Below, one piece after another: positions 3,758 through 62,545 of a stretch of 64,000 bases of DNA. Origin of the DNA: Candidatus Blackburnbacteria bacterium (lineage in GTDB: Bacteria; Patescibacteriota; Microgenomatia; UBA8517; UBA10165); NCBI GenBank assembly GCA_016183565.1, contig JACPEJ010000001.1, positions 358,479 through 422,478 of the forward strand, given 5' to 3'. The first letter of the stretch is position 1; every line of letters starts with the position of its first letter. A program made the position numbers and the translations under genes. The notes under the pieces were generated by a model, which was not told the DNA's origin, searched no databases, and saw only the letters and a list, made by a program, of their open reading frames with translations.

Positions 3758-3812
3758 TTTCTTTGCCCCTTTTTCTTAATTGAATGTATAATCGTAGTAG
3801 TAGAGTTGCTAC

Positions 3813-5549: not shown

Positions 5550-5563
5550 TTCTTCTTGCTTTA

Positions 5564-10570: not shown

Positions 10571-10588
10571 ATTAGAATTTAAAAACAA

Positions 10589-15348: not shown

Positions 15349-16611
15349 ATGAAATTTACAAAGATATTATTCCTGTATTTTTTGTCTTTGGCCGGAAGCT
15401 CGTTTTTTGCGGGAAGTATTATTATGGTGCTTGGTACAAATTTTCATAACCTTGGCCAGTTGGTCTACCACTTTCTGGCCGGCAGACTTTTAGGCAAAGT
15501 TTTCTATGGAGACCTGGCGGCCCTAATTTCTATTTTTGGTCTTCTTGCAATAATTCAACAAGCTTTTGGTTTAACAATTATTAAGTTTGTTGCATCAGCA
15601 AAAAGTCCCGAGGAAGCTAATAACTTTACCAAGTGGGTGTGGTTCTGGAGTATTTGGGTAGGTGTTATAGTTTTTGTCTTGCTTTTGTTTTCCTCACCAT
15701 TTATAGTCCAATTTTTAAACATTAGTCAACCGCAGGTAATTTATATATTTATTCCCGTCGTTCTTGTTGGCTTTATCTCAAATACTGGTAGAGCGCTTTT
15801 ACAAGGTTTTACTAGATTTACCCAGTTTGTTGTTAGTATGGTTGCAGAAGTAGGAGCAAAGATTGTTGCTATGGTACTTCTTGTATATCTCGGCTACTCA
15901 CTTTTTGGGGCAGTAGCAGCACTTCCTGTGGGAGCTGTGGTTGGATTTGTTATTGTCTGGTTGGGGTTGAGGAAAAACCTTAAAGGACCAAGAGCCAAGA
16001 TGCCCAATCTCTCCCCTCTTTTTGCATATTCATTTCCCGTGTTTATTCAAAGTATTGCTCTTACTTCAATGTATTCATCAGATATTTTGCTTGCTAAGCA
16101 CTTTTTTACCGCAGAGCAGGCAGGACTTTATGCTGCCTTGGCAAAACTTGGAACGATTGCATTCTTCAGCTCTTCTCCGATAACGAGTGTGATGTTTCCA
16201 ATAATTGCGAGAAATCATACGCATGGTCAGCCCTATCACAGAATTTTTTACCTTAGTGTCGCTTTAGTTACACTGATTTCATTAGCCGTAATAATCTCCT
16301 ATATATTCCTTTCTGGTTTTATTATCGGGATTCTTTTTGGCAAAGATTTTGTTGAAGGCGCCCCGATTTTATGGTGGTTTAGTCTTTATATGTTCCTATT
16401 GGGGGTCGGAATGCTTTTTGTTCATTTTTATTTGTCGATTGGTAAAACAAAAGTCGTTTGGTTGTTTGCCGCAGCAGCACTTACTCAAATAGTTCTGATT
16501 CTGGTGTTTCACGCCACCTTATTAAGTGTTATTCAAATGTCAATAATTGCAGCAGCTTTACTCGTTCTGGGTCTTCTTCTATACTTTCCTTACCACCACA
16601 GACAAAGATGA
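15349..16611 (+). CDS. Wzx-like polysaccharide / lipid-linked oligosaccharide flippase (MOP superfamily)
   Basis: 420 aa with 12-14 TM helices and the typical 'polysaccharide biosynthesis protein' topology. Short positively charged loops ('GLRKNLKGPRAKMPN') lie between two 6-TM halves. Overlapping boundaries on both sides. Confidence 0.55.
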   Translation: MKFTKILFLYFLSLAGSSFFAGSIIMVLGTNFHNLGQLVYHFLAGRLLGKVFYGDLAALISIFGLLAIIQQAFGLTIIKFVASAKSPEEANNFTKWVWFWSIWVGVIVFVLLLFSSPFIVQFLNISQPQVIYIFIPVVLVGFISNTGRALLQGFTRFTQFVVSMVAEVGAKIVAMVLLVYLGYSLFGAVAALPVGAVVGFVIVWLGLRKNLKGPRAKMPNLSPLFAYSFPVFIQSIALTSMYSSDILLAKHFFTAEQAGLYAALAKLGTIAFFSSSPITSVMFPIIARNHTHGQPYHRIFYLSVALVTLISLAVIISYIFLSGFIIGILFGKDFVEGAPILWWFSLYMFLLGVGMLFVHFYLSIGKTKVVWLFAAAALTQIVLILVFHATLLSVIQMSIIAAALLVLGLLLYFPYHHRQR

Positions 16612-17396
16612 AAAACGGGCTGTTATCTATTGTTGTACCGGCGTACAAGCAAGAGCAAACGATTAAAAGAGATCTTGAGAATATAGATCAAACGTTGCGT
16701 GAGGGACTAAAAGGCTATATTTATGAAATTATATGTGTTGTGGATGGTAGGGTTGATCGAACTTGGGAAGAGGCTAAGAAAGTGAAGTCTAGAAGAGTTA
16801 AGGTTGTTGGCTATGATGCAAATCGTGGCAAGGGTTACGCAGTTAGATATGGTATGGCAACATCCAGGGGTGATTGGGTTTCGTTTTTGGATGCTGGTAT
16901 GGAAATAAGCCCAACTGGAATTATGATGCTGATGGCGCATATGGAGTGGTATGGTGCCGATATTATAGTTGGGTCCAAACGCCACCCTGCTTCCCGAGTA
17001 AACTATCCTTTCCTTCGTTATATTCTAAGTATTGGCTATCATGGTTTATCGATGTTTTTTTTTGGTTTACCACTTAGGGATACACAAAGCGGAATAAAAA
17101 TTTTCAAAAGAGAAGTACTTAAAAAGATTCTTCCTCGACTTCTGGTTAAAAGGTATGCAATGGACATAGAAATGTTAGCAGTAGCCAAATATCTTGGATT
17201 TGATAGAATTTTTGAGGCTCCTATAGAAGTAAGATTTGATCAAAGAACGAGTAGGGTTTCCTGGCGCAGTATTTTTAACATGGCATGGGACACACTGGCA
17301 GTGTTTTATCGCCTAAAAATCTTGCATTATTATGATGATAAAAACAGGAAAAACTGGCTTGTTGATCATGAATATTCTTATTCTTTCTTGGCGTGA
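16608..17396 (+). CDS. GT2 polyprenyl-phosphate sugar synthase-like glycosyltransferase (DPM1-like)
   Basis: 'LSIVVPAYKQEQTI', 'CVVDGRVDRT', 'VSFLDAG', 'GSKRHPASRVN' and 'RDTQSGIKIFKREVL' are DPM1/GtrB hallmarks. The real ATG is at 16608, overlapping the flippase stop (ATGA); the upstream part of tracked ORF 16458 lies inside the flippase. Contains a T9 homopolymer at 17055-17063. Confidence 0.7.
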   Translation: MKNGLLSIVVPAYKQEQTIKRDLENIDQTLREGLKGYIYEIICVVDGRVDRTWEEAKKVKSRRVKVVGYDANRGKGYAVRYGMATSRGDWVSFLDAGMEISPTGIMMLMAHMEWYGADIIVGSKRHPASRVNYPFLRYILSIGYHGLSMFFFGLPLRDTQSGIKIFKREVLKKILPRLLVKRYAMDIEMLAVAKYLGFDRIFEAPIEVRFDQRTSRVSWRSIFNMAWDTLAVFYRLKILHYYDDKNRKNWLVDHEYSYSFLA

Positions 17397-18486
17397 CCCC
17401 AAACATCCATTAGCTGGTGGTGCAGAGCAAGTTATGCATGAACATGCAAAGGGGTGGGTGGAGGCTGGCCATAATGTTACCCTTTTTGCCTCTCACTTTA
17501 AGTATGCACCCCGCTGTCAGGTGTTGGACGGTGTAACCGTAATAAGATATGGTTTTCAATATCTTGGTGTCCATTTGGCAGCCTTTTTCTGGTACTTGTT
17601 TGGCAAACACGCGCATTTTGATTTGGTTGTTGATCAGTTCCATGGCATTCCTTTTTTTACGCCCTTTTATGCAAGAGTGCCTAAACTTGCGGTACTTCAA
17701 GAAGTGGCACGCGAAGTTTGGCTGATTAACCACTTACCGTGGCCATTTAGTTGGATTGTAGGATGGATGGGGTATCTTAGCGAACCGTTGGTCTTTATTT
17801 TTTATAAACATGCTCCGTTCATGGTGGGTTCTGAATCGGCAAAACAAGACCTAATTAAATTGGGAATTGGTGATAATAATATTACAGTTGTACCTCATGG
17901 TGTGTTGATAAGAAAACCTAAGCCAGTGCCTCAAAAAGAAAAAGTTAAATCAATTGTCTTTTTGGGTGCTTTGGCAAAAGATAAGGGTGTTGAAGACGCA
18001 ATAAAGGCATTTGGCTTACTCACTAAATTTGGTAAGTTTGAGTTTTGGATAATTGGTAGAGGTTCTGTAAGTTATATAGCTAAACTTAAAAAACTTGCAA
18101 GTTGTGTTGGAGTAGAGAAAAGTACTATCTTTTGGGGTTTTGTATCTGATAAGAAAAAGTTTGAATTACTTGCAAGAGCGCATGTTATGGTTAATCCGTC
18201 TGTTCGAGAAGGATGGGGACTTGTTAATATTGAGGCAAATGCAATGGGTACACCAGTTGTGGCTTATAGGTCTCCAGGTTTGGTTGACTCGGTGAAAGAT
18301 GGGGTTAGTGGTGTTTTATGTTACCACAATACTCCTGAAGCCCTAGCAGAAGCTATTTTTGCTTTACTAAAAGATGCTAGTTATTTGGCGAGCATAAGTA
18401 AAACTTCAGTTGCGTGGAGTAAACAGTTTACTTGGGTAGAATCGCGCGCAAGGAGTTTAAAACTGATTGAGAAAATAGCTACTTGA
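17368..18486 (+). CDS. GT4-family glycosyltransferase
   Basis: The 'EGWGLVNIEANAMGTPVVAYRSPGLVDSVKDGVSGVL' GT4 C-terminal motif. The likely start is M13 (ATG 17368) of tracked ORF 17332, which reduces the overlap with the upstream gene. Confidence 0.75.
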   Translation: MNILILSWRDPKHPLAGGAEQVMHEHAKGWVEAGHNVTLFASHFKYAPRCQVLDGVTVIRYGFQYLGVHLAAFFWYLFGKHAHFDLVVDQFHGIPFFTPFYARVPKLAVLQEVAREVWLINHLPWPFSWIVGWMGYLSEPLVFIFYKHAPFMVGSESAKQDLIKLGIGDNNITVVPHGVLIRKPKPVPQKEKVKSIVFLGALAKDKGVEDAIKAFGLLTKFGKFEFWIIGRGSVSYIAKLKKLASCVGVEKSTIFWGFVSDKKKFELLARAHVMVNPSVREGWGLVNIEANAMGTPVVAYRSPGLVDSVKDGVSGVLCYHNTPEALAEAIFALLKDASYLASISKTSVAWSKQFTWVESRARSLKLIEKIAT

Positions 18487-18528: not shown

Positions 18529-19098
18529 ATGAACAAGGTTTTTGCGGTCGCAACAATTGTTTTGGGATTGTCACTTATTCTAGTAGCACCAGTATATGCT
18601 GTACAGAGGAGGTTGCCTACCTCCGCACCGACTCCAACTCCCACCCCTACCCCCACTGTTGTTCCTGTCAATTCGTTTGAGTTGTTTTGGCCACTTGTTG
18701 CAGGCAAAACAGAAGGTGATTCTTTTTATTCTTTGAAGCTTATTAAAGAACAGGTTCAAGGTTGGTTTATTTTTGACGGTTCAAAAAAAGCAGATTATCA
18801 AGTTTTCTTGGGTACAAAGCGTGTACTAGAATCAGAGAAGCTTATTAAAGAAAGTAAAGCCAAAAATGCTGAGAAAACACTTGAACGAGCAAGTAGTAAC
18901 TTTTCTCGAGCGTATGATTTTGCCAAGACCGCAGGAGACAAAGGTAACTTTGATGCAGGCAAAGTTAGAAAGGATAGGCTGTTTAACGTAAAAACCTTGA
19001 TTGACTCACTGAAGGTGTTTGCCCCGAGTGATCTGAACATAGGTCTTGATGTGGTTAGGGGTAAAGCAGATAGACTTCTAAGCGACTATTTACCCTAG
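18529..19098 (+). CDS. small secreted protein with a signal peptide and Pro/Thr-rich linker, a putative O-glycosylation acceptor
   Basis: N-terminal 'MNKVFAVATIVLGLSLILVAPVYA' is signal-peptide-like. It is followed by 'PTSAPTPTPTPTPTVVP' and then a charged, helix-rich domain. Paralogous to the 62546 gene. Confidence 0.5.
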   Translation: MNKVFAVATIVLGLSLILVAPVYAVQRRLPTSAPTPTPTPTPTVVPVNSFELFWPLVAGKTEGDSFYSLKLIKEQVQGWFIFDGSKKADYQVFLGTKRVLESEKLIKESKAKNAEKTLERASSNFSRAYDFAKTAGDKGNFDAGKVRKDRLFNVKTLIDSLKVFAPSDLNIGLDVVRGKADRLLSDYLP

Positions 19099-19115: not shown

Positions 19116-21233
19116 CTACTCCCCGAAAGTGAAGATCCGGAGACCAATACTTGATAGGTCACAAGGATAATTTACAGGAGAAACTAGTCTTATATACTGA
19201 GCGTTATCTCCTGGAAAAAGAAAAACAAAATCTGCATTATATCCGGCTATTTCCCTCACAGAGAAATTATTTACACTCTCGTCTTTTTGAAAGTACTGAT
19301 CTCCGTCCGTAGAAATGTACACAGTTGCGCCAATTAACTTATTTTTACACTCATCCGAAGGAAAAGAAAAAGTCAAAGCCTTAAGCTTTTTTATTCTATA
19401 AAGCGAAATAAAAATTTCTTTTTTACCATCATAGGCAGAGTATGTTCTCTTGAATTGCTCACTTGTTCCTTCTATATTAAGACCTTCTTTAAGGTATTGC
19501 TTGTCATTTTTCCATATTTTTAAAACTGGAACACCATCCACTCTTACGGCATATACCTCGTTGAGAAAGTTATCTAAGTATTTATGTCTAAAAGTATTAC
19601 TGAATATATCTTGTCCAACAACAAGCGCCATTTGGTATTCTCCCTCTTGGTTGTAGCCGCTTCTGGAACCATTAGAAAAATCGATATCTTCTCGAAGAGA
19701 TAGGCGAGATATATTTTGTGCATTTCCAGAAACTAGTGCAAGTTTTGCTCTTAGTTCTGCATTTTGGTTTATCCACTTTACGCCTTGTAAGTAAGCGTTA
19801 CCGTAAGTATTTCCATATCCAGGGAAATCTTTTTCCGCTGCACCTTTTAGCCCTCCTATGAGAAAGTTAAAATAAACATTTTGGTTTGGATGTATTTTCC
19901 AAAGAGTCGAGAGTGTGGGTATAAAACCAGCTAAGATTAGAAGAGATACAATTAAGCTGATAATTTTTTTCTTTGGTCGTTGAGACAGAAAATACTTTGT
20001 CAGGATTTTAGCAATAAAGTTTCGCAAAAAAAGTGCGCCAACACTCGCTATCATTGCCATGGGTGCAACAAATTCCATAATTTGTCTTAACCCCCCATAT
20101 ATATTAGTTATTGAAAAAGTTACCCTAAGAATTGTAAAGTAAAAGAAAGTAAGCCAAAGAATAGTGACAGAACCTTTTTCCTTAAAACGAAAAACGCCAA
20201 CGATAGAACCTACAAGAAGCAGAAAAAGGGTAAAGGGGGGAATTGTATACAGGAAATATTTGATGCTAATAAGTTGTGTGCACTCTGTGAACCAGAATTT
20301 CGTTAAGGGAGAATGGGGACATGTTGGTCCGCCAATGTCTTTATAGTACATAACGACTTGATAAATTTTTTCTGCGGGATTAGGCCACAAAGCTGGCCAA
20401 GTCAGAAAGAAAACCAAAAATATGATTATTGGATAGATGGCAAGAGCAAGAAGCATTCTTTTTGAGAAGATCTGTTTTAGGCGGTGGTAGTTTGTGAATA
20501 GGTAGGCTGCAAACCAAGGGAAAAGAATAAATGGAGCAAATACAAAATTAAACTTTGTGCCGAACGATGCTCCTCCTGCTAACGCAGAGAGAATAAGGTA
20601 TAAAATCCTCTTTTTTGTAAATGACAGCCAAAAGAAATATAGAGAAATAATAAAAAACGTTGCCATTGGAGGGTCTTTGATATTAAAATGTTGTTCTGCA
20701 AAAAGAAGCGGAAGGGTGTAAATTGTTAGTACGGATATAATGGAAGCAAAGGTTCCGAAAGTTCGTTTTGCCCAAATAGAGACGGTTAAAGCCAGCAAAA
20801 ATGTGGTAAACACACTGTAGAGGTGATAACTGTCTATATCTTCGACCCAACCCAGATATTTGAAAAAGACTGTGTTGCTTGCCGCAAGCATCAAGTCACT
20901 AAAAGCAGGATGTCCGTAGGTGCCTTTTGCAACCCAGCTATTAAAGTCAAGAAGATTGCTTTCGTATTCACTAACACGCACTTTGCGATGTCTGTCGCAG
21001 ACTTCGCCCGTAGCCGCGTCTACGTGGGAGTTTAAATTATATTCACTTTTACAAAGACTGGGTAAATCGGAATAGTCCGTTTTATGAGATAAAATATAGC
21101 GTAAATAAGCTTGGCCGCGTGCAAAGTGAACTGGTGAATCCCAATTCATTCCATAGTCATATTGTGTTGTAAGGGCAACAATAAAAAACAGTATTGGAAT
21201 TAAAAAGGAGGAAAAGCGTTGGATTAAGGTCAT
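19116..21233 (-). CDS. large GT-C-fold-like polytopic membrane protein with a C-terminal extracytoplasmic domain (paralog A of an inverted pair)
   Basis: The N-terminus 'MTLIQRFSSFLIPILFFIVALTTQYDYGMNWDSPVHFARGQAYLRYILSHKTDYSDL' parallels the 25672 gene. 'NIYGGLRQIMEFVAPMAMIASVG' and 'NVYFNFLIGGLKGAAEKDFPGYG' are shared with it. ATG at 21233; the track starts at an upstream alternative start codon (21278). Confidence 0.55.
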   Translation of the reverse strand: MTLIQRFSSFLIPILFFIVALTTQYDYGMNWDSPVHFARGQAYLRYILSHKTDYSDLPSLCKSEYNLNSHVDAATGEVCDRHRKVRVSEYESNLLDFNSWVAKGTYGHPAFSDLMLAASNTVFFKYLGWVEDIDSYHLYSVFTTFLLALTVSIWAKRTFGTFASIISVLTIYTLPLLFAEQHFNIKDPPMATFFIISLYFFWLSFTKKRILYLILSALAGGASFGTKFNFVFAPFILFPWFAAYLFTNYHRLKQIFSKRMLLALAIYPIIIFLVFFLTWPALWPNPAEKIYQVVMYYKDIGGPTCPHSPLTKFWFTECTQLISIKYFLYTIPPFTLFLLLVGSIVGVFRFKEKGSVTILWLTFFYFTILRVTFSITNIYGGLRQIMEFVAPMAMIASVGALFLRNFIAKILTKYFLSQRPKKKIISLIVSLLILAGFIPTLSTLWKIHPNQNVYFNFLIGGLKGAAEKDFPGYGNTYGNAYLQGVKWINQNAELRAKLALVSGNAQNISRLSLREDIDFSNGSRSGYNQEGEYQMALVVGQDIFSNTFRHKYLDNFLNEVYAVRVDGVPVLKIWKNDKQYLKEGLNIEGTSEQFKRTYSAYDGKKEIFISLYRIKKLKALTFSFPSDECKNKLIGATVYISTDGDQYFQKDESVNNFSVREIAGYNADFVFLFPGDNAQYIRLVSPVNYPCDLSSIGLRIFTFGE

Positions 21234-21257
21234 GCTTGTACAAATAGGGCTTCGTAG

Positions 21258-21290
21258 TACCCTTAGACGTGGTATCATTATATACTAGTT
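21258..21290. promoter_or_regulatory. compact divergent promoter region for the 21233(-) and 21309(+) genes, with overlapping -10 elements
   Basis: The 75-bp intergenic space contains 'CATTATATACT'. This reads TATACT on the + strand (21281-21286) and TATAAT on the - strand (21277-21282). The -35 elements are weak. Confidence 0.3.
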
Positions 21291-21308
21291 GCTCAGGGGT
21301 AAAAGATA

Positions 21309-22316
21309 ATGATTGTAGTAAGAGCGCCGCTACGAGTAAGTTTTGTTGGTGGAGGTACAGACCTTGCCGATTTTTATACACGCACACCGGGCCGCGTAAT
21401 TTCAACAGCTATCGACAAATGGGTGTATTTAGTTATCAACAAAACTCCAATGATTGATAAAATATCAGCCCGTTATTCTATTACTGAAACTGTAGATAAG
21501 CTCGATGAGCTACAACATACTCGTATTAAAGCAGCATTACTCGACTTAGGGATTGAAAAAGGAATTGAGATTGGCTCATTTGCTTCACTTCCAGCTAAGA
21601 CTGGTTTGGGGTCTTCCTCCAGCTTTTCGGTTGCATTGATGAAGGGCCTCCATGCTTCTTTTGGGAGAAGCCTAACACCATACCAGGCTGCAGAAGAAGC
21701 ATGCCGGCTTGAGATTACGCTGTTGGGAGAACCTATAGGCAAGCAAGACCAATATGCAGCGGCTTTTGGTGGCTTGAACCGCATTCAATTTAATCCAGAC
21801 CATAGTGTGGAAGTCAAACCAATACTGATAAACTACCGTGTCCAATCAAAAATTGAAGATCATTTGCTTATGTTTTTTACGGGTATCACACGTTTTGCCT
21901 CGGAAATTCTGACAGAACAAAAAAACAATATTTATCAAAAATTCGACACCCTCTGTGAAATGGCCGACTCAACCTTTGATTTTGAAAAGATGCTTCTTGG
22001 GGGAGATGTAGAAGGTATGGCAAAGATGCTCCACAGTGGGTGGCTTCTCAAACGCTCTCTCGCATCCTCTGTCTCCAATTCTGCCATTGACAATCTTTAC
22101 AGTATTGGAGTAGGGGCGGGTGCATTGGGTGGAAAGGTGCTTGGTGCTGGCGGGGGTGGTTGTATTCTTTTTATAGTGCCTCCTAAAAAATGGAGTGGAG
22201 TATCTAAGGAGCTTTTGAAAGAATCGGCAAGGAATAGTCTTTCTCAAGCAAGAGTTATCCCTTTCCGTTTTGCTAATTTTGGAACTGAAGTTGTATTTGA
22301 TGACCAAATAACATAA
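21309..22316 (+). CDS. GHMP-family sugar kinase (heptose-7-phosphate-kinase / fucokinase-like)
   Basis: 'IVVRAPLRVSFVGGGTDLADFY', the GHMP motif 'PAKTGLGSSSSFSVALMKGL', and C-terminal 'GKVLGAGGGGCILFIVP'. Confidence 0.75.
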   Translation: MIVVRAPLRVSFVGGGTDLADFYTRTPGRVISTAIDKWVYLVINKTPMIDKISARYSITETVDKLDELQHTRIKAALLDLGIEKGIEIGSFASLPAKTGLGSSSSFSVALMKGLHASFGRSLTPYQAAEEACRLEITLLGEPIGKQDQYAAAFGGLNRIQFNPDHSVEVKPILINYRVQSKIEDHLLMFFTGITRFASEILTEQKNNIYQKFDTLCEMADSTFDFEKMLLGGDVEGMAKMLHSGWLLKRSLASSVSNSAIDNLYSIGVGAGALGGKVLGAGGGGCILFIVPPKKWSGVSKELLKESARNSLSQARVIPFRFANFGTEVVFDDQIT

Positions 22317-22326
22317 ATTAATAGTA

Positions 22327-22353
22327 TCAGCCATACCCAGCGGCTAGGGCTGA
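22327..22353. terminator. putative bidirectional hairpin between convergent genes
   Basis: TCAGCC(22327-22332)...GGCTGA(22348-22353) forms a 6-bp perfect stem with a 15-nt loop. It sits in the 59-bp space between the GHMP kinase (+) and epimerase (-) stops. The flanking U-tract is weak. Confidence 0.25.
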
Positions 22354-22375
22354 CTGACAAAAGAGAAATTACCTT

Positions 22376-23500
22376 TTATGTTTTCTTTGTTTTTCGTATA
22401 ACTCCCAATGCCATCATTTTTTTAAAAGCCTCGTCAGATCTATCTTCAATAGGTCCTAAACTCTCAAGATACTCCTTATACTGCTGCATGGACTTTTCCA
22501 AACTTACTTTAGGTTTCCAACCTAACTTGCTTATTGCCTTAATACTCGAAACCGTTGAGCGAGTATCACCCAATCGGAAAATACCTGGAATTTCTGGCTC
22601 TAAAGAGGAATCGAACATTCTTAATATTATCTTTGCGAAACTTAAGTTTGTATAACCTCGGCCACTTCCAACAAAGAAAACTCTATTGTTTGCCCGATTA
22701 TCTTCTAAAACTAATAAATTAGCTGCAGCAACATCATATACACTCACATAATCCTTAAGTCCTAAACCGTCTTCAAACAGAACGGGGCGTTTATTGTTTA
22801 AAATTCTTTGAGCAAATACTCGGGCTATTCCTGAGTAAGCGTTGTAAATTGAATTCCTTGGACCCTGCACGTAGGTATATCGCATGCACACTGTTGGTAT
22901 ACCGTGCTTTTTACCCAGTACATCAGCCAGTAATTCAATTACATACTTAGAAACACCATAAGTAGTAGTTGGCCGGGCGATGTCCTCTGTCATTAGAACG
23001 TTCTTTGCTGGTTTGCCACAATTCGGGCATTTCAAATCCCACTCACCCCTTTCTAGTTGCACTAAAGGACGTTGTACAGCCCAAAACTTACCGTGCACAG
23101 AGCATTTCCATTTCCCATCTCCTGCAACTGCCTGAGAGGAAGCAAAAATTATTTTCTTAATGGGGAGTTTGTGTTGTAATATAAGTTCAAACATGAGCGC
23201 GGAACTTTCTGTGTTAGTGTGTATGAAATGCGAAAAGTCAGGAAGATAATCTTGGTAGGCAGCTAAATGATAAACTGCGTCAACTCCTTTTAATCCTTTT
23301 AATAGATCCTTTGGATTTGCCACATCTCCTTTAATAAATTCCACTTCGTTGGGAATATAGTCAGGCTTGCCTTTTGGATGTACTCTTTCTTGGAGATTAT
23401 CTAAAATCTTGACGGAATATCCTTTTTTCAGAAGTAAATCTATTGTGTGAGACCCGATGAATCCAGCTCCACCGGTGACTAAAACCTTGTGATATTTCAT
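22376..23500 (-). CDS. NAD-dependent sugar epimerase/dehydratase (extended SDR) with an inserted Cys/His zinc-ribbon
   Basis: 'KVLVTGGAGFIGSHTIDLLLKKGYSVKILDNL' is the Rossmann fold, and 'YGVSKYVIE' is the catalytic YxxxK. The insert 'CSVHGKFWAVQRPLVQLERGEWDLKCPNCGKP' (C-x3-H...C-x2-C) lies between the catalytic Ser and Tyr regions. Confidence 0.8.
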   Translation of the reverse strand: MKYHKVLVTGGAGFIGSHTIDLLLKKGYSVKILDNLQERVHPKGKPDYIPNEVEFIKGDVANPKDLLKGLKGVDAVYHLAAYQDYLPDFSHFIHTNTESSALMFELILQHKLPIKKIIFASSQAVAGDGKWKCSVHGKFWAVQRPLVQLERGEWDLKCPNCGKPAKNVLMTEDIARPTTTYGVSKYVIELLADVLGKKHGIPTVCMRYTYVQGPRNSIYNAYSGIARVFAQRILNNKRPVLFEDGLGLKDYVSVYDVAAANLLVLEDNRANNRVFFVGSGRGYTNLSFAKIILRMFDSSLEPEIPGIFRLGDTRSTVSSIKAISKLGWKPKVSLEKSMQQYKEYLESLGPIEDRSDEAFKKMMALGVIRKTKKT

Positions 23501-23536
23501 GAACTATTCTAACATTAGAGTGATTTTTGAGCAAAC

Positions 23537-24313
23537 ATGGTTAAGTCTTTAACAAAGGGAGCCTGGATACTATTTTCTGAAAAGTTTGGAACTAGTATTT
23601 TGCACCCACAGTTTATATTGCTAAGGTTTCAGAGAGAGGTACTCGAAGAGGCGAAAAAGTATGCAAAAGGTAAGTTGGTGGATATAGGGTGCGGCCGGAT
23701 GCCTTATAGGAAAGAATTCGAACCTCTTGTGGAATCTTATATAGGTGTGGATCACCCGGAGGTTTCGAAACTTTATGGTCCAGATAATTCGCCGGAAGTG
23801 TTAGCAGATGCGAAGAAACTTCCTTTTAAGACTAATTCTTTTGACACTGCTTTGTTGCTTCAGGTGTTAGAGCATGTTGATGATCCAGAGAGGGTAATTA
23901 AAGAAGCCTCAAGAGTTTTAAAGCCGAACGGAGTGCTGATTGTTTCGGTACCCTTTTTTTATCCACTTCATGATATGCCTTACGACTGGGGTAGGTATAC
24001 AAGTGTGGCCTTAAAAAGTTTAATGAAGGGTGCATCTCTTCGTCTTGTTAAGATAAAGACACAAGGAGGGTTTTTTGAATTTTGGTTGCAAATGTTGAAC
24101 ACATTTCTTGTCAAGCGTATAAACGACATACTCTTGACTAATTTTGGGTTTCATTCTATTGTTTTACTTGTCGTTATTGTGGCTTTTTCCCTACCTATGT
24201 TTTTGTTTAATAATTTATTAATAGTAATTATTAGTTCTATGTCACGCCTGTTTCCCAAGTACCCTGATTATTTCCCATTAGGTTATTTAGTAGTTGCGAG
24301 GAAAAAGCCATGA
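23537..24313 (+). CDS. class I SAM-dependent methyltransferase (Methyltransf_11-like) with C-terminal TM helices
   Basis: 'VDIGCGRMPY' is motif I; 'LLQVLEHVDDPERVIKEASRVLKPNGVLIVSVP' is the post-II region. The hydrophobic C-terminus is 'IVLLVVIVAFSLPMFLFNNLLIVIISS'. Confidence 0.7.
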   Translation: MVKSLTKGAWILFSEKFGTSILHPQFILLRFQREVLEEAKKYAKGKLVDIGCGRMPYRKEFEPLVESYIGVDHPEVSKLYGPDNSPEVLADAKKLPFKTNSFDTALLLQVLEHVDDPERVIKEASRVLKPNGVLIVSVPFFYPLHDMPYDWGRYTSVALKSLMKGASLRLVKIKTQGGFFEFWLQMLNTFLVKRINDILLTNFGFHSIVLLVVIVAFSLPMFLFNNLLIVIISSMSRLFPKYPDYFPLGYLVVARKKP

Positions 24314-25539
24314 ACCGTCGGAAGATTAAAGTACTTGTTTTAACAAGCTCATTCCCTAGGTATAAGAATGATTGGTGGCAACGTACAATTTTGAGTATTT
24401 ATAGTAATATGGATCTGAAAAAATATTCTGTCACTGTTGTCGCTCCGTCGGGTCCAGACTCATTGATTTCAGAAAAAATTGGCGGAATAAATATTAGAAG
24501 GTTTAACTATTTTTACCCAAGATCTCTACAAGTTCTTACGTCTGGGGAGGGCATACTATATAGCGGTAAGAAAAATAGAATATTGGGTAAGGTCCAGATG
24601 TTTACTTTTATTCTTGCTGAATTCTTTACAGCTTTAAAGTCATTAATGCAAGAAGATTTCGACATTATACACGCAAATTGGATTATTCCCCAAGGTTTTA
24701 CAGCAGTTCTTTTGGGATTCATTTTCCATAAGAAAGTAGTAGTCACAGTACACGGTACAGATGTTTTTGCTTTGAAAAAACTGAATTTTATTAAAGCCTT
24801 TATTCTTAAATATTGTGATCTGTGTACTGCAAACAGTTCTGTTACCAGAGATGCCGTAAAAGAAATATACCCGAAGGCAAAAGTGGAGATAGCATACATG
24901 GGAGTTGACGTAAGGTTATTCAATCCGCTTAAGCGCAACAAATCGTGGATAGAAGGATTTGGAAACAATCCAAAAATAATTTTGGGCGTAGGAAGGTTGA
25001 TTAAATGGAAAGGCTTTGAATATCTAATAAAAGCATATGCCCAAGTTTTAAAGTCTGTTCCTAATGTAAAACTAGTTTTAATTGGCAAGGGTCCTGAAGA
25101 AGATGCTCTAAAAAAGTTGGCAAGCAAACTTGGCCTTAAAGAAAATGAAGAAATATTTTTTATGGGAACATTTGGACCTGACAAATTACCAACGATTTAC
25201 GCATCAAGCAATTTAGTCGTTTCACCATCAATAACAATTGCTAAAACCGGCGAAAAAGAAGGCCAGGGAAATGTTGTGCTGGAAGCACGAGCCTCAGGAG
25301 TTCCTGTAATAGCAAGTAGGTCAGGCGGACTTGTTGATACAGTCGATGGGAAAACAAATGGGCTTTTATTTGAAGAAAGAGACTATAAAGAACTAGCCAA
25401 AAAAATTATACTTATTCTTTCTGACGAGGTGTTAAAGAAGAGACTATCAAAAAACGGATTAAAGTATGTAAGAGAGAACTTCTTCTGGAAAAAGGCAAGT
25501 GCGAGATTTTGTGAGCTGTATGAAAGTATTCTCTCTTGA
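24310..25539 (+). CDS. GT4-family glycosyltransferase
   Basis: 'EGQGNVVLEARASGVPVIASRSGGLVDTVDGKTNGLLFEE'. ATGA overlap with the upstream gene. Confidence 0.8.
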   Translation: MNRRKIKVLVLTSSFPRYKNDWWQRTILSIYSNMDLKKYSVTVVAPSGPDSLISEKIGGINIRRFNYFYPRSLQVLTSGEGILYSGKKNRILGKVQMFTFILAEFFTALKSLMQEDFDIIHANWIIPQGFTAVLLGFIFHKKVVVTVHGTDVFALKKLNFIKAFILKYCDLCTANSSVTRDAVKEIYPKAKVEIAYMGVDVRLFNPLKRNKSWIEGFGNNPKIILGVGRLIKWKGFEYLIKAYAQVLKSVPNVKLVLIGKGPEEDALKKLASKLGLKENEEIFFMGTFGPDKLPTIYASSNLVVSPSITIAKTGEKEGQGNVVLEARASGVPVIASRSGGLVDTVDGKTNGLLFEERDYKELAKKIILILSDEVLKKRLSKNGLKYVRENFFWKKASARFCELYESILS

Positions 25540-25671
25540 CCTAAAAGGTCTATTTCTAGTTCCTTTGGGCTCCCTCTTGTTTTTAGTGATGGTGTTATTT
25601 GCCCTAAGTGGTTATGGTATTGGTTGGGATGAACCCCAATATATTATTCAAGGTTGGGCATGGGGAGGCAA

Positions 25672-27741
25672 ATGTTGAGTAACAAAGTTGTAGCTCTGTT
25701 TCTATCTTTTTTGTTTTTTATTTTGGGTTTAGCCACCCTATCGCACTATGGGATTAACTGGGATGCACCGAGCCACCTTATCCGAGGTCAGGCATATTTG
25801 CATTATTATCTGACAGGAAAAAAAGACTACACAGATATTGATCAATGGAATTTATATAGAGAAAAAGAAGAGGAGATTCGAATAAAAACTGCGCATGATA
25901 GTGTGCCAAGGTACAGACTTTATTTTCAACAGGTTGACACTATTTTTTTTAACCCCGATGTACCTAAAGATCAAGTTCCTCGAATAAGTATATACCAGAA
26001 CACAGGTAAGGATCTTAATGATGTAGTGGCGCATTATGACTATGGCCATCCTCACATAAGCGATGTTTTGTCTTCTGTATTTAATCTTGTATTTTTCCAA
26101 AAACTTGGCTTTTTAAATGACATAGACTCATATCGCGTTTATGGAGTTTTGCTCTCGAGCCTGCTTGTGGGCTTAGTATTTTGGTGGACTGCAAACTCAT
26201 ATGGGAAATTTTCTGGACTTGTTGCCGCATTGTCACTTTCCCTTTATCCACTTTTCTGGTCAGAATCGCACTTTAACAACGAGAAGGATATTCCACAGAC
26301 TGTTTATTGGAGTTTCCTGCTGTTTTCCGTGTGGCGTGGTATTACAACTAAAAGTTGGAAATGGATATTGACATCTGGGGTATTTTTTGGTCTTGCTCTA
26401 GGTAGTAAATTTAATGCCCTTTTTTCGATATTTGTCATTGTTCCATGGCTTACTCTGTATCTTGCTTCTAAGCGCAAGAGGTCCTTCTCTGTTGTCGCTT
26501 TTCTAAAAAGACACACTAAGTCTATTTTGGCTTTGGCTACTGCGCCAGTTTTAGGCCTCACCATCTTTTTTGGTACTTGGCCATATTTTTGGGTGGATCC
26601 GGTAGGTAAGATTACAAAAATGATAAATTTTTATGTAACTATAGGTATGGCTGACAATGTTGACCACCGCTTTCTTGGCCTGTTGGGGGTAAACACATAC
26701 CCGCTTCAGTGGATTTTGTATACTACTCCACTCGTGATCTTGTTTCTGTTTTTTGTGGGAGTTGGAGTAGCTGTGTCGAGATTGTTTCGGGAAGATAAAA
26801 TGCAGTCTTTGCTTTTTTTGCTATGGTTGACTGTACCCATAGCAAGAGTTACGTGGCCAGGTACTAATATATATGGTGGAGTGAGACAGATTATGGAGTT
26901 TATACCGGCCATAGCTATAATTGCGGGAGTCGGAGGAGGGCAACTTTGTAAGTGGGTAGGGGGTGGTTTGGGGAGGTGGGGAATTGGGGTGTATGGGCAG
27001 ACTTTTGGTGCTTCTCTTTTGATACTGGTGCTTTTTGTGCCGTTAACGCTAAAGCTTGTTGAGATTCACCCTAATGAGAATGTCTATTTTAATCCTTTAA
27101 TAGGGGGACTTAGAGGTGCTGAGGAACGGGATTTTCCGAGCTGGGGTGTTTCGTTTGGCGCCCCGTACAGAGAGGCTATTGAGTGGATAAATAAAAATGC
27201 TGAGCCAGGGGCAAAATTGACTCTCCCTGAGATATTGAGTAATATTCCGGGTGTATTTATTCGACCGGATATAGATTACGATTACAAAGGTGACAGTGGG
27301 TATCTTCAGCAAGGAGAATATGTGATATCACTTAGATTTGACGGGACTGAGAATCGGTCCTATTTTGACATGTACCTAGACAGAATGATTGAGCCGTTGT
27401 ACGAGATAAAAGTTGATGATGTCGCGATCCTCAAAATCTGGAAAAATGATAAAAGATATCTTAAAAAGGAGTGGAAAATTGAGAGCGTTTTGGATAAAAT
27501 CAAAGTTGTAAATAAAGACTCAGTTATTCTTTTTGACTTAGGCAAAGAGGTAAAACTGTCAAGGTTGGAATTGGAGTACGTAGAAAATTCCGCCTGCTCA
27601 GAGCTTTCTTGGGCTTATTTGATAGTTTCAAAAAACGGTAGAGACTGGGAGAGAGTTCCTGGAGTTTTACCAGAGGAGGTCAGGATCAAAGCCTTAGGTA
27701 TTCAGCCATCAGGAGGAAAGTTTATTGAGCCTTTCGCCTGA
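25672..27741 (+). CDS. large GT-C-fold-like polytopic membrane protein (paralog B, inverted relative to the 19116-21233 gene)
   Basis: 'INWDAPSHLIRGQAYLHYYLTGKKDYTDI', 'NIYGGVRQIMEFIPAIAIIAGVGGG' and 'NVYFNPLIGGLRGAEERDFPSWG' are shared with paralog A. GGAGG lies at 25664-25668 just upstream of ATG 25672; the track starts at TTG 25654. Confidence 0.55.
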   Translation: MLSNKVVALFLSFLFFILGLATLSHYGINWDAPSHLIRGQAYLHYYLTGKKDYTDIDQWNLYREKEEEIRIKTAHDSVPRYRLYFQQVDTIFFNPDVPKDQVPRISIYQNTGKDLNDVVAHYDYGHPHISDVLSSVFNLVFFQKLGFLNDIDSYRVYGVLLSSLLVGLVFWWTANSYGKFSGLVAALSLSLYPLFWSESHFNNEKDIPQTVYWSFLLFSVWRGITTKSWKWILTSGVFFGLALGSKFNALFSIFVIVPWLTLYLASKRKRSFSVVAFLKRHTKSILALATAPVLGLTIFFGTWPYFWVDPVGKITKMINFYVTIGMADNVDHRFLGLLGVNTYPLQWILYTTPLVILFLFFVGVGVAVSRLFREDKMQSLLFLLWLTVPIARVTWPGTNIYGGVRQIMEFIPAIAIIAGVGGGQLCKWVGGGLGRWGIGVYGQTFGASLLILVLFVPLTLKLVEIHPNENVYFNPLIGGLRGAEERDFPSWGVSFGAPYREAIEWINKNAEPGAKLTLPEILSNIPGVFIRPDIDYDYKGDSGYLQQGEYVISLRFDGTENRSYFDMYLDRMIEPLYEIKVDDVAILKIWKNDKRYLKKEWKIESVLDKIKVVNKDSVILFDLGKEVKLSRLELEYVENSACSELSWAYLIVSKNGRDWERVPGVLPEEVRIKALGIQPSGGKFIEPFA

Positions 27742-27844: not shown

Positions 27845-28585
27845 ATGATATTTACTGACGACACCATAAAAAGAATTAAGAAAGACCCCTTTAGAGTAAT
27901 ATTTAGAGCATTTAATAAATATATTTTTGGGACAATGCGTTACAAAAAAGGAAAAGGTTATGATGCCGCCTTGTATTGGCAGGATCGTTTTAGTAAATAC
28001 AAAGACTCAATAAAGGGACCTGGCGACGAAGGTTTAACGGAAAAGGAAAATTTAGAAATGTATAACCAAGCGAAAAAAACTTTCCTAAAATTTTGTAAGG
28101 CAGAGAAAATATCATTTACAAAGTCAAAAGTTTTAGAAATTGGACCGGGTACGGGTTTTTACACAGGGATTCTTAAAAACTCTGGGGTAAAAAATTACAC
28201 AGGTCTTGATATAACCGATGTGGCTTTTAGCAAACTAAAGAAAGAATACCCCTATTTTAGGTTTATTAAACGCGATATAACAAAATTTTCTCCCACAGAA
28301 AAATATGATGTTGTGGTTATGATTGACGTTATCGAGCATATAGTAGAGGAAGAGAAACTTAAAAAAGCCATGGAGAATATAAGCAGATCTCTTGGATCAA
28401 AAGGAGTTTTTATTCTTGCACCGATTATGAGGAACAGTAAAAAGAAGTTCTTTTATGTTAGGTATTGGACACTAGAAGAGCTTGAAGTAATTCTCAAAAA
28501 TCATAAGTTTAGCAAACCTATACGATTCCGGAATGGATATTTGGTATCTGTAAGGCATAGATACAACTCGTTTCAAAACTCATAA
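27845..28585 (+). CDS. class I SAM-dependent methyltransferase
   Basis: 'VLEIGPGTGFYTG' is motif I; 'YDVVVMIDVIEHIVEEE' and 'SKGVFILAP' follow. Confidence 0.65.
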   Translation: MIFTDDTIKRIKKDPFRVIFRAFNKYIFGTMRYKKGKGYDAALYWQDRFSKYKDSIKGPGDEGLTEKENLEMYNQAKKTFLKFCKAEKISFTKSKVLEIGPGTGFYTGILKNSGVKNYTGLDITDVAFSKLKKEYPYFRFIKRDITKFSPTEKYDVVVMIDVIEHIVEEEKLKKAMENISRSLGSKGVFILAPIMRNSKKKFFYVRYWTLEELEVILKNHKFSKPIRFRNGYLVSVRHRYNSFQNS

Positions 28586-29404: not shown

Positions 29405-30127
29405 CTACCTAGAAGAATTATCAAATATCATCAGCTTAAGCCACAAAGCGCCAATATCTAAATAAGTTTTAATTATTTTTGACGGTCTAAAAAATTGCGA
29501 CTGTCCATATTTTCTGTCGTAATGATGTACAGAAACTTGGCGAAATACTGCCCCGGCCCTTTCTGCTTTCTTTGCAAGCTCTATACAGATTGAGCCACTA
29601 TTGGATTGAAGTTTTATTTTTTTGATGATATCTCGCCTGATTAATCTAAAATCGCAGTCTACGTCATATATTGGGAGCCAAAAAAGCCAGCGGTTTATGA
29701 ATCTATGCATATTACCGAAGAAAATTCGGTGTGGCACATCGCCTCTCCGCATCTTTATGCCATTTATAAAGCTAACGTCTGGAGTCATTAGGCTAAGAAG
29801 TATTGGCATTTCATTTACATCATATTGCCCGTCCCCGTCAGTATAAAAAACTAAATCCTTAGAAGCATTAGCGAAACCGCTTTTTAGTGCCCCACCGTAT
29901 CCGCGATTCTTTTTATGTGTTACTACTTTTAACTTCTTGTGTTTTTTGGCTAATTTCAATAGTACCTCTCCACTTTCATCACGTGATCCATCATTAACTA
30001 CAATAACCTCATGGTCTTTTGCAATTTTTGCTAGAGTATCGAATGCGTCTTTTACTAACCCTCCGATAGTTTTTGCGTCATTATAGCAGGGGAAAAATAC
30101 GGAGATACTTGTGGATTTTTTTGCCAT
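29405..30127 (-). CDS. GT2 polyprenyl-phosphate sugar synthase-like glycosyltransferase (GtrB/DPM1-like, soluble form)
   Basis: 'ISVFFPCYNDAKTIGGLVKDAFDTL', 'EVIVVNDGSRDESGEVL', 'VFYTDGDGQYD', 'GIKMRRGDVPHRIFFGN' and 'DVDCDFRLIRRDII'. The true ATG is at 30127 (M106 of the tracked ORF), overlapping the upstream gene's TGA by 1 nt. The first 105 codons of tracked ORF 29405-30442 lie inside the upstream gene. Confidence 0.65.
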   Translation of the reverse strand: MAKKSTSISVFFPCYNDAKTIGGLVKDAFDTLAKIAKDHEVIVVNDGSRDESGEVLLKLAKKHKKLKVVTHKKNRGYGGALKSGFANASKDLVFYTDGDGQYDVNEMPILLSLMTPDVSFINGIKMRRGDVPHRIFFGNMHRFINRWLFWLPIYDVDCDFRLIRRDIIKKIKLQSNSGSICIELAKKAERAGAVFRQVSVHHYDRKYGQSQFFRPSKIIKTYLDIGALWLKLMIFDNSSR

Positions 30128-31074
30128 CACTTGATAATTTCCTTGATGTTGGCAGAATAATCTATTTTGCCACGGGAGGCAAGCATCATTTCGGCAAGTA
30201 GCCCGGTTGATATAAGCTGAACTCCGACAATTATTAAGAGTATCCCTAAAATAAGGAGCGGTTGTCGACCTTGGACACCTCCTGTTGTTACCCTTAGATA
30301 AGTAATATAAAGACCAATCAGAAATCCAAAAAAGAAAGATATTAAGCCAAATGTGCCAAAGAAATGCCCAGGACGCCTGTTGTATCCGGTTAAGAAGAAT
30401 ATTGTTAAAAGATCCAAAAAGCCCTTGATATTTCTCTCCCAACCAAATTTAGAGATACCATGTTGTCTTGCTCTGTGTTCTACGGGGATCTCTGTTACGC
30501 GGAAAGCCTGTTTTACAGCAAAAACTGGGATGAAACGATACAGCTCTCCGTACAGGTTAAGGCTTTTTACAACTTCTTTTCGATATGCCTTAAATCCGCA
30601 ATTTATATCATGAAGCTTGACACCTGTCAGCAAGGGAGTTAAAAAATTATTCAAAATTCTTGAAGGAATTACTTTAACGGAAGGGTCAAACCTTCGCTTT
30701 TTCCAACCCGATACAAGATCATAACCCTGATCAAGCTTTGCAAGAAAATGTGGGATTTCGGAAGGATTATCTTGAAGATCTCCGTCAAGAGTAAGAACTA
30801 TTTCTCCTGAAGCTTTCTCAAAACCGACCTGAAGAGCTGCTGATTTACCAAAGTTTCCCCTAAAACGGATAACTTTTACATCTATGTCTTTTTTATGCAG
30901 CGCCTTCATTTTTTCAAACGTGCTGTCTGTCGATCCATCATCAATGAAAATTATTTCGTAGCTTTTCTTGAGCTTGCGAACAACAGACACGATTTCTTGG
31001 TATAAAGTAGGAATTGATTCTGCTTCATTTTTGGCGGGAATGATAAATGATAGGTCTGTAGATTTAAGTTTCAT
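30127..31074 (-). CDS. membrane-anchored GT2 polyprenyl-phosphate glycosyltransferase (ArnC/GtrB/CsbB-like)
   Basis: 'LSFIIPAKNEAESI', 'EIIFIDDGSTDST', 'VLTLDGDLQDNPSEIP' and 'DINCGFKAYRKEVV'. Two C-terminal TM helices: 'FFGTFGLISFFFGFLIGLYITYL' and 'LILGILLIIVGVQLISTGLLAEM'. Confidence 0.75.
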   Translation of the reverse strand: MKLKSTDLSFIIPAKNEAESIPTLYQEIVSVVRKLKKSYEIIFIDDGSTDSTFEKMKALHKKDIDVKVIRFRGNFGKSAALQVGFEKASGEIVLTLDGDLQDNPSEIPHFLAKLDQGYDLVSGWKKRRFDPSVKVIPSRILNNFLTPLLTGVKLHDINCGFKAYRKEVVKSLNLYGELYRFIPVFAVKQAFRVTEIPVEHRARQHGISKFGWERNIKGFLDLLTIFFLTGYNRRPGHFFGTFGLISFFFGFLIGLYITYLRVTTGGVQGRQPLLILGILLIIVGVQLISTGLLAEMMLASRGKIDYSANIKEIIK

Positions 31075-37628: not shown

Positions 37629-37639
37629 TTTAATATTAT

Positions 37640-38824: not shown

Positions 38825-38853
38825 CTGTTAATTTTACCTAATATGCCGACAAA

Positions 38854-56592: not shown

Positions 56593-56663
56593 GCCGTTGG
56601 TGGCTGTCCTCTCACTATTTGTTCGTACTGAGAAAGTTGCGAAGAGTATTGAACTTATTTTTT

Positions 56664-56691: not shown

Positions 56692-56702
56692 TCAAGTATA
56701 TT

Positions 56703-62481: not shown

Positions 62482-62545
62482 TTGTTTCCTTAGGATATCA
62501 TAAATGTTGTTTTTACCTGGCAGGTATGTTAATCTTTTTAACAGT

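Follow-up and report, generated by a model that had tools for sequence, protein, structure and literature searches.

Two anciently separated paralogs of an uncharacterised GT-C glycosyltransferase subfamily flank a variable gene region in a Candidatus Blackburnbacteria glycosylation island

The described systems closest to the genes reported here are built around membrane glycosyltransferases of the GT-C superfamily. ArnT (GT83; PDB 5ezm and 5f15) is the undecaprenyl-phosphate-L-Ara4N:lipid A transferase, and the GT39 enzymes Pmt1, Pmt2, Pmt4, and bacterial Pmt act on Ser/Thr-rich acceptors outside the cytoplasm. The Pgf system of Streptococcus mutans (PgfS, PgfE, PgfM1, and PgfM2) comprises a GT2 enzyme that makes a polyprenyl-phosphate sugar, a sugar epimerase, and a pair of GT-C paralogs; its glycosylation occurs outside the membrane, and the two GT-C enzymes are not redundant (PMC11092751). 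In the mycobacterial Emb/Aft systems, several GT-C paralogs of one locus serve one surface polymer with a polyprenyl-phosphate sugar, and EmbC carries a lectin-like carbohydrate-binding module as its C-terminal domain (PMC3044687). The GT66 enzymes STT3, PglB, and AglB combine a core of 13 transmembrane segments with a C-terminal extracytoplasmic domain. Here, we describe a divergent pair of genes, A and B (Table 1), on a 64,000-nucleotide stretch of Candidatus Blackburnbacteria DNA (the window). The entire window is a glycosylation island, in which at least 11 genes match the Pfam families PMT_2, PMT, or PTPS_related, together with further polytopic proteins that belong to no family, numerous GT2, GT4, and methyltransferase genes, a flippase of the Wzx type, and an AsnB-like amidotransferase. 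We consider it probable that A and B are anciently separated paralogs of one GT-C subfamily, which use lipid-phosphate donors and differ in donor, acceptor, or linkage.

An initial annotation of the window had described A and B as outward-facing paralogs that bracket a four-gene sugar cassette. The listing and translation of the open reading frames (ORFs) place both genes as given there, with A read leftward and B rightward at a separation of 4.4 kb. For A, an upstream ATG at 21278 is an alternative start; in B, a Shine-Dalgarno-like GGGGAGG lies 5 nt 5' of the ATG. The two proteins are true paralogs: BLASTP aligns 648 residues at 35% identity and 53% positives (E 3e-113), from the first transmembrane helix (TM1) into the soluble C-terminal region. 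The motifs NWDxPxHxxRGQAYL, NIYGGxRQIMEF, and NVYFNxLIGGLxGA, noticed at the outset, all appear in this alignment and form invariant or near-invariant columns in 85 homologues. We rejected transmembrane composition bias as the source of the similarity, because the soluble C-terminal 200 residues align with strong motifs. An assembly error or chimera was likewise rejected, since the same divergent order of A and B is found in independent JGI, ENA, and GenBank assemblies from different samples.

Both proteins belong to the GT-C superfamily (GT-C_A; ArnT/PMT/STT3-like), within which they form an uncharacterised subfamily. Against Pfam PMT_2 (PF13231; gathering cutoff 26.1 bits), A scores 26.7 bits and B 49.8 bits, so that both reach the cutoff. 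The AlphaFold2 models (pLDDT 94.2 and pTM 0.92 for A from an 85-sequence alignment; 87.8 and 0.90 for B from 62 sequences) contain about 13 long helices up to residue ~447 in A and ~465 in B, followed by a soluble C-terminal region. Together with hydropathy, they bear out the architecture anticipated in the initial annotation, a polytopic N-terminal domain followed by an extracytoplasmic region of about 250 residues. All significant full-length Foldseek matches in the PDB are GT-C enzymes (E 2e-7 to 1e-3, probability 1.0), namely STT3, ArnT, EmbA/B/C, AftA, AftD, PglB, AglB, DPY19, ALG9, and Pmt4. The E-values for STT3 are 4.7e-7 with A and 2e-7 with B, and those for ArnT 1.6e-6 and 3e-6, respectively.

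Profile-profile comparison with hhalign connects residues 111-497 of A to the classical PMT_2 genes of the window (probability 94.6%, E 7e-8). Membership in the tandem PMT_2 array at 2201-12277 was considered for A and B and rejected: BLASTP gave no match at 1e-3, and the family hidden Markov model (HMM) of A and B gave only a marginal match to the array gene 3813-5549. Because only the profile-profile comparison ties them to this array, A and B constitute a distinct subfamily of the superfamily. Neither protein matches Pfam PMT (PF02366) at E <= 0.01; precomputed PF02366 matches exist for several relatives, some of them B-type, and some B-type relatives bear the NCBI name 'glycosyltransferase family 39 protein'. 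YfhO, PTPS_related, DUF2723, and DUF2079, proposed as candidate families beforehand, turned out to match neither A nor B (Pfam, E <= 0.01). An NCBIfam scan returned 0 families for both proteins, ArnT equivalog models included, and PDB sequence searches with A, B, and the family profile retrieved weak CBM32 matches only and no membrane enzyme. Our literature searches on DUF5667, and on Microgenomates or the candidate phyla radiation (CPR) with glycosyltransferases, found nothing on the subfamily. The impression that the family is uncharacterised thus held for the subfamily, which has no characterised member in the libraries and literature searched, but not for the superfamily, which is recognisable as GT-C/PMT_2.

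The structural matches also raise the question of whether A and B might act like an oligosaccharyltransferase (OST), transferring en bloc a polyprenyl-diphosphate oligosaccharide to protein or polymer. The cytoplasmic GT2 and GT4 enzymes of the island, with its methyltransferases, would build the oligosaccharide, and the Wzx-type protein would flip it. The island is indeed rich in soluble glycosyltransferases and methyltransferases, it contains a MOP/Wzx flippase, and the STT3 subunits of OST are the top Foldseek matches of both models. However, STT3, ArnT, and Pmt4 are practically equal by target-normalised TM-score (0.46, 0.48, and 0.49), the range over STT3, PglB, and AglB being 0.34-0.46, and Pfam assigns PMT_2 of the ArnT/PMT clan rather than STT3. 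No Pfam STT3 match was found for A or B, WWD is absent from both translations and with it any motif of the WWDYG type, and no priming phosphoglycosyltransferase is present among the window ORFs of >=150 residues. We therefore regard an OST-like activity as improbable.

With ArnT, the proteins A and B share the PMT_2 family, a membrane core of similar size, a C-terminal extracytoplasmic α/β domain (periplasmic in ArnT), a conserved aspartate after TM1 as a candidate counterpart, target-normalised TM-scores of 0.44-0.48, and, in the window, an ArnC-like GT2 nearby. Unlike ArnT, they match no NCBIfam ArnT model and no ArnT sequence of the PDB by phmmer, their first outer loop is longer by 60-80 residues, and A has an extra CBM32-like domain. 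In a CPR host, lipid A would not be an expected acceptor. With the GT39 enzymes, they share the GT-C_A fold, including Foldseek matches to Pmt4 and Pmt1-Pmt2, and differ by the missing PF02366 match, the lack of a MIR domain, and another C-terminal module. The first loop reads NWDS in A and NWDA in B without a D-E pair, which the other PMT-type genes of the window keep. The aspartate directly following TM1, at the start of the first extracytoplasmic loop, is invariant, as D32 in A (85 sequences) and D31 in B (62 sequences). This is where the catalytic acid of GT-C enzymes lies, and the residue is, judged from the alignment, a candidate for that role. The invariant columns of the 85 sequences including A and B comprise, among others, the catalytic candidates D32, H36, D132, E180, K186, D187, K227, R370, R383, and E387 (numbering of A).

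The C-terminal regions distinguish the two proteins. In the model of A, the polytopic core is followed by an extracytoplasmic α/β domain and then by a β-sandwich at residues ~589-705. These last ~115 residues match CBM32 or F5/8-type-C structures in Foldseek (2j7m, 5zu6, 2j1e, and 4lks; E 5e-3 to 2e-2, probability 1.0; target-normalised TM-score 0.40-0.48), while the sequence signal is weak (4a42 at E 0.036 in a PDB profile search; Pfam F5_F8_type_C_2 at a sub-threshold E of 0.036). The C-terminal β-region of B is shorter and modelled with less confidence; Foldseek gives no CBM32 match for it, and Pfam F5_F8_type_C matches B weakly (E 0.069). One homologue (P0078) has a precomputed PF00754 match, and some subfamily members of ~550-600 residues are entirely devoid of the CBM32-like module. 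The comparison with the Emb and Aft enzymes extends to Foldseek matches with EmbA/B/C, AftA, and AftD. It is limited by the size of Emb and AftD (1,000-1,400 residues), by their other carbohydrate-binding folds and positions, by target-normalised TM-scores of 0.16-0.26, and by the lack of sequence-level similarity.

The subfamily comprises 1,025 clusters at 50% identity in an exhaustive HMM search of 1.84 billion representatives (E <= 1e-30), and scanning a single genome for each GTDB species turned up 305 stretches with genes for relatives. The closest named homologues of A and B come from Candidatus Blackburnbacteria. All informatively named carriers but three belong to Microgenomates (Blackburn-, Davies-, Levy-, Roizman-, Woese-, and Gottesmanbacteria); by record title, the exceptions are Parcubacteria, Saccharimonadales, and Berkelbacteria (three records), and one further title reads Woesearchaeota. 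Dozens of third-party-annotation metagenome-assembled genomes are titled 'uncultured Gammaproteobacteria bacterium' (L009, L019, L020, L022, L023, and others) and one 'Woesearchaeota archaeon'. Their loci are typical of Microgenomates and hold a family GT-C gene, DUF5667, and the same GT4 genes; the titles look like placeholder or wrong taxonomy.

We constructed a neighbour-joining tree of 96 family members with 200 bootstraps. The A clade (Blackburn-, Davies-, Levy-, and Roizmanbacteria), the B clade (Blackburn-, Davies-, and Woesebacteria), and the clade of a third paralog were each recovered in 200/200 bootstraps, and the third-paralog clade spans several named lineages as do the other two. 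Within the tree set, A is 48-61% identical to its own orthologues and B 47-53% to its own, as compared with 36% between A and B. Since the ortholog clades are separate and the identity within them exceeds that between A and B, the split predates these candidate phyla. It thus long predates this genome, and an in-place inverted duplication is excluded.

The initial annotation had favoured such an inverted duplication around a precursor cassette, a reading that did not survive the comparison. An inverted segmental duplication in this lineage would fit the paralogy, the inverted orientation, and the distance of 4.4 kb between the genes, and three inverted patches of similar DNA (I1-I3) do exist between A and B. 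By blastn and a repeat search, these are only 35-71 nt long and 73-80% identical, and they lie solely beneath the conserved protein motifs, so that a similarity strong at the protein level is reduced to motif patches at the DNA level. Moreover, A and B are less similar to each other than to their orthologues in other candidate phyla, which fall into separate clades, the content between the genes varies among close relatives, and the A-type gene of Levy- and Roizmanbacteria is co-directional with the methyltransferase-GT4 pair. A recent or in-place duplication was rejected on these grounds, and we regard the lineage-specific version as extremely improbable. Terminal repeats, as signs of mobile elements, were not found around A and B; terminator-like sites there do not exceed shuffled expectation, and promoter-like sites lie only ~2 standard deviations above it.

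The orthologous loci show how variable the region is. In three independent assemblies of the A3D26 type of Blackburnbacteria (L001-L003), the order is DUF5667, A-orthologue (69%), methyltransferase, GT4, third paralog (35% to A), a 789-residue F5/8-type-C membrane protein, LPG_synthase_TM, B-orthologue (68%), and a second methyltransferase, with neither the kinase nor the short-chain dehydrogenase/reductase (SDR) of the window. The closest relatives (L004 and L008; A 81% identical) have gained the kinase and not the SDR. The A3A58 type and its relatives (L005, L009, and L010) carry a far larger sugar cassette, covered in its entirety in L005, with SIS_2, transaldolase, GHMP kinase, SDRs, UDP-glucose dehydrogenase, and a GFO oxidoreductase. 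In the genome VMGE01, the two-copy layout of the window is split over two contigs (L010 and L041), with A, kinase, SDR, and methyltransferase on one and GT4 followed directly by B on the other. Several Blackburnbacteria loci insert the third paralog, the F5/8-type-C membrane protein, and the LPG_synthase_TM gene, as in L001-L003. The A-type gene of Levy- and Roizmanbacteria (L006, L014, L015, and L017) runs in the direction of its methyltransferase and GT4, and in most other lineages two or three copies of the family are arranged in tandem, all on the same strand.

Divergent A- and B-orthologues in the same orientation recur in independent assemblies. On the question of one or two copies at orthologous loci, Blackburnbacteria relatives keep A and B divergent, often with a third paralog and variable content, but elsewhere the copies are mostly in tandem. 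The outward-facing order is specific to Blackburn- and Daviesbacteria, and the so-called cassette is a variable region. The order would have arisen by rearrangement with gene gain and loss rather than by duplication in place. As separate observations on these loci, L005 at 3275-9917, beside the A-orthologue, encodes a GmhA-like SIS_2 protein, a transaldolase, a GHMP kinase, SDRs, a UDP-glucose dehydrogenase, and a GFO/IDH/MocA oxidoreductase. The kinase adjoins the SIS_2 and transaldolase genes there. By its gene content, this set looks like a route from sedoheptulose-7-phosphate to a heptose and may hint at the sugar handled in the region. The 789-residue F5/8-type-C membrane protein (3436-5805 (-) in L001), which is flanked by family paralogs in related Blackburnbacteria, shows a YLEDY motif following TM1 and may represent another GT-C-like family with a discoidin module. 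Its N-terminus shares 30% identity over 118 residues (tblastn E 1e-6) with the product of 53857-55428 (+) in the window, a 523-residue polytopic protein without a Pfam match.

Separate ortholog lineages of A and B, kept across several candidate phyla, suggest that the two differ in donor, acceptor, or linkage rather than being redundant. We consider this most likely, and it agrees with the alternative already offered in the initial annotation, two transferases of different specificity, which proved functionally the most plausible. Dimers of paralogs are common among the GT-C enzymes of this class, which raises the possibility that A and B form a heterodimer like Pmt1-Pmt2 or EmbA-EmbB. Structures of such dimers are among the matches (7bvc for EmbA-EmbB and 6p25 for Pmt1-Pmt2), and A- and B-orthologues share one locus in several Blackburnbacteria. 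Nevertheless, Woesebacteria and other lineages have B-clade genes with no A-clade gene within +/-10 kb, loci of Levy- and Roizmanbacteria have A-clade genes but no B-clade gene, and we judge a heterodimer of this kind quite improbable.

Table 1. Genes A and B and the neighbouring genes discussed in the text, with positions in the 64,000-nt window.
Gene	Position	Strand	Description
A	19116..21233	-	705 residues counted from the second ATG; GT-C-fold membrane glycosyltransferase
B	25672..27741	+	689 residues; same GT-C architecture as A; longer first outer loop
GHMP kinase	21309..22316	+	HddA/WcbL type (D-glycero-D-manno-heptose-7-phosphate kinase-like); Pfam GHMP_kinases_N, GHMP_kinases_C
SDR	22376..23500	-	GalE-like extended SDR (NDP-sugar epimerase/dehydratase family); Pfam Epimerase 2.1e-38, two stretches
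Anchored methyltransferase	23537..24313	+	SAM-dependent; C-terminal membrane anchor; Pfam Methyltransf_11 6.5e-19
GT4	24310..25539	+	Cytoplasmic; Pfam Glycos_transf_1 9.1e-40, Glyco_transf_4; overlaps the methyltransferase stop by 4 nt
DUF5667 protein	18529..19098	+	Small, secreted; Pfam DUF5667 2e-10; convergent with A, 18 nt gap
GT4up	17332..18486	+	Second GT4; Pfam Glycos_transf_1 1.1e-34
Soluble methyltransferase	27845..28585	+	SAM-dependent; Pfam Methyltransf_11/25, NodS; directly downstream of B
GT2	30127..31074	-	ArnC/PgfS/GtrB type; two C-terminal transmembrane helices, hydrophobic segments at 237-299
Flippase	15349..16611	+	MOP/Wzx type; Pfam Polysacc_synt 4.7e-25; sole flippase candidate among the window ORFs of >=150 residues

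The four genes between A and B are of the kinds that the initial annotation had named: a GHMP kinase, an SDR with a Cys/His insert, an anchored methyltransferase, and a GT4. The GHMP kinase is related to WcbL (PDB 4usm at 2.7e-43; also 3k85 and 4n3o) and reaches 146.7 bits on the NCBIfam model HddA, whose equivalog cutoff is 600. The gene is accessory and variable: L001 lacks it, and L004, L005, and L008-L011 carry it. The SDR matches PDB 4zrm (1.2e-38) except for residues ~131-172, an insert of ~40 residues with a CxxH...CPxC tetrad kept in four orthologues and compatible, by its residue pattern, with the proposed Zn ribbon. It is variable as well, absent from L001 and L004. As a side observation, the four SDR orthologues are ~80% identical overall as against 60-62% for A in the same genomes, so that the SDR is much more conserved.

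The methyltransferase and GT4 form the steadier part of the interval. The methyltransferase has a hydrophobic segment at residues 195-239 by hydropathy, and homologues occur in 35 of 77 loci; 23 of the 36 homologues are anchored at the C-terminus, and 21 have a family member no more than 1.5 kb away. The GT4, whose orthologues in L001, L004, and L008 are 84-88% identical, recurs downstream of the anchored methyltransferase across the family. The pair precedes B in the window and another family member in related genomes, and it adjoins a family member in all A-clade loci with sufficient contig. On the far side of B, the soluble methyltransferase keeps its position in related Blackburnbacteria (87% identical in L001 and 79% in L057). 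On the far side of A, the order GT4up, DUF5667, family GT-C recurs across Microgenomates. An upstream GT4 followed by the small DUF5667 protein is seen in about a third of loci, and in many loci a GT4up orthologue (52-62% identity) precedes DUF5667, a family member, or both.

The DUF5667 neighbour brings a protein acceptor into consideration. The protein starts with a signal peptide or anchor, followed by a linker, PTSAPTPTPTPTPT, and the DUF5667 domain. Orthologues adjoin family members in about one third of the 77 loci, and in most of them the signal peptide is followed by a short S/T/P-rich linker, in many cases PS/PT-rich. As a specific sub-case of two GT-C enzymes of differing specificity, A, and perhaps B, might be a protein O-glycosyltransferase of the PMT/Pgf type with the DUF5667 linker or similar surface proteins as acceptor, in keeping with the assignment to PMT_2 and the Pgf precedent (PMC11092751). 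Yet short S/T/P linkers after signal peptides are common and non-diagnostic, several DUF5667 orthologues have few S/T residues, the adjacency was seen in only about one third of the loci, no literature on DUF5667 was found, and the lectin-like C-terminal module suits a glycan acceptor at least equally well. On balance, this sub-case is possible though unlikely.

A candidate for the donor supply is the GT2 gene at 30127..31074. Its product scores 181.9 bits over the full length (7-297 of 316) on the NCBIfam model ArnC and 155.3 bits on PgfS, and from these profiles it is a candidate polyprenyl-phosphate-sugar synthase supplying GT-C donors. The likeness to Pgf lies in the make-up of the locus, with a GT2 synthase candidate, a sugar epimerase-like gene, and two paralogous GT-C genes, and includes this PgfS-like score; the differences are that PgfM1 and PgfM2 are GT-C enzymes of the YfhO family whereas A and B belong to PMT_2, that the recurrent partners here are an anchored methyltransferase and GT4 enzymes, and that no acceptor adhesins are encoded. 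A three-component system of GT2 synthase, GtrA/GtcA flippase, and GT-C was not found, no GtrA/GtcA-like small membrane protein being present among the window ORFs of >=150 residues. Of a complete GDP-heptose pathway, only the HddA-like kinase is clear in the window; a HAD hydrolase and nucleotidyltransferases at 43896-46042 give weak or no matches to HddC and GmhB-type models. As listed, the GT2 ORF overlaps another at 29405-30442 (-) by 316 nt. The Pfam GT2 domain of that 345-residue ORF begins at residue 114, and its true start is probably near 30130, which would give two adjacent ArnC/DPM1-like GT2 genes, with C-terminal transmembrane helices only in the one of Table 1.

Taken with established GT-C biology, A and B as paralogs of differing specificity would both work on the outer side of the cytoplasmic membrane. 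There, each would take a sugar from a polyprenyl-phosphate-linked donor made by the candidate GT2 synthase and attach it outside the cytoplasm, with a surface glycan or a secreted protein rich in Ser, Thr, and Pro as the acceptor. The C-terminal domain would help to hold the acceptor in the manner of the lectin-like C-terminal modules of Emb enzymes. The intervening genes would provide cytoplasmic steps of the same surface-glycan pathway, with the anchored methyltransferase and GT4 as a conserved partner pair and the HddA-like kinase and GalE-like SDR as swappable precursor genes. By analogy, the lectin-like module of A and the Emb precedent (PMC3044687) favour a glycan acceptor; the PMT_2 affiliation, the adjacent DUF5667 protein with its PT-rich linker, and the Pgf precedent (PMC11092751) keep a protein acceptor open. 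A bolder proposal unites the A/B GT-C enzymes, the anchored methyltransferase, the GT4 enzymes, and DUF5667 in an undescribed, Microgenomates-specific module of extracytoplasmic glycosylation, in which the paralogs would be heteromeric or act consecutively. Such a module would move a methylated, possibly heptose-derived sugar from a lipid carrier to the S/T/P-rich linker of DUF5667, or alternatively to a surface polymer organised by DUF5667-type proteins. We hold this proposal to be rather improbable.

Several points weigh against our reading of A and B as GT-C paralogs of differing specificity. The PMT_2 score of A barely exceeds the gathering cutoff, and TM-scores against solved GT-C structures reach moderate values (0.34-0.49). 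That D32 corresponds to the catalytic aspartate of ArnT or PglB is suggested by its position after TM1 and its invariance, which makes it a candidate. The CBM32-like call in A is below family thresholds by sequence and is not recovered for B. The GT2 scores fall short of the ArnC and PgfS equivalog cutoffs, and neither a small GtrA/GtcA-type flippase nor a priming phosphoglycosyltransferase is found among the window ORFs of the size given above. The neighbour-joining tree is midpoint-rooted without an outgroup, and no member of the subfamily in the libraries and literature searched comes with biochemical evidence.

Other features of the window deserve mention in their own right. It is nearly all protein-coding with very short intergenic gaps, and neither tRNA genes nor Rfam families at gathering score were found in the entire 64 kb. 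Nine genes other than A and B match PMT_2, PMT, or PTPS_related, notably in 2201-12277, 14154-15347, 42268-43899, and 48294-50252, and six of the nine form the head-to-tail array at 2201-12277. Within the array, the genes 3813-5549, 7191-8903, 8900-10570, and 10589-12277 are 28-36% identical to each other, and 2201-3757 is more distant (23-28%). The gene 5564-7201, which carries a PTPS_related match, has only a 147-residue match to 8900-10570. The ORF 4-906, cut by the start of the window, is the C-terminal part of another such GT-C gene. At 35149-41558, a dihydroorotate-dehydrogenase-like protein, a FAD/GMC-type oxidoreductase, and an AsnB-type glutamine amidotransferase stand among glycosyltransferases and presumably modify sugars by oxidation and amidation rather than serving pyrimidine or asparagine metabolism.

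DUF5667 occurs in three proteins of the window. In addition to the neighbour of A, these are a second small secreted protein (62504-63064), whose gene is divergent from, and overlaps, the 5' end of the gene for an unassigned 683-residue polytopic protein (60514-62565), and a 1192-residue protein (56619-60197) with ~10 N-terminal transmembrane segments and a weak DUF5667 match (E 0.0094). In these genomes, DUF5667 seems to stand habitually next to large polytopic proteins.

The inverted pair itself is ordinary: it reflects the shuffling of glycosyltransferase paralogs inside a glycan island and involves no novel mechanism, either of duplication or of regulation. The system is of an ordinary kind, and its novelty lies in an uncharacterised membership within a known enzyme class. 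CPR (Patescibacteria) genomes are ~1 Mb in size. For such a genome, at least 64 kb with at least 11 GT-C enzymes represents a very large investment in glycosylation. Cultivated CPR members live attached to other cells (PMC11623550), and surface display is central to CPR biology because of this attachment, yet it is almost uncharted. The module proposal, if true, would amount to a lineage-defining surface-coat pathway of ultrasmall episymbiotic bacteria. The A/B subfamily offers a well-defined and structurally confident target for working out the surface glycans of Microgenomates.

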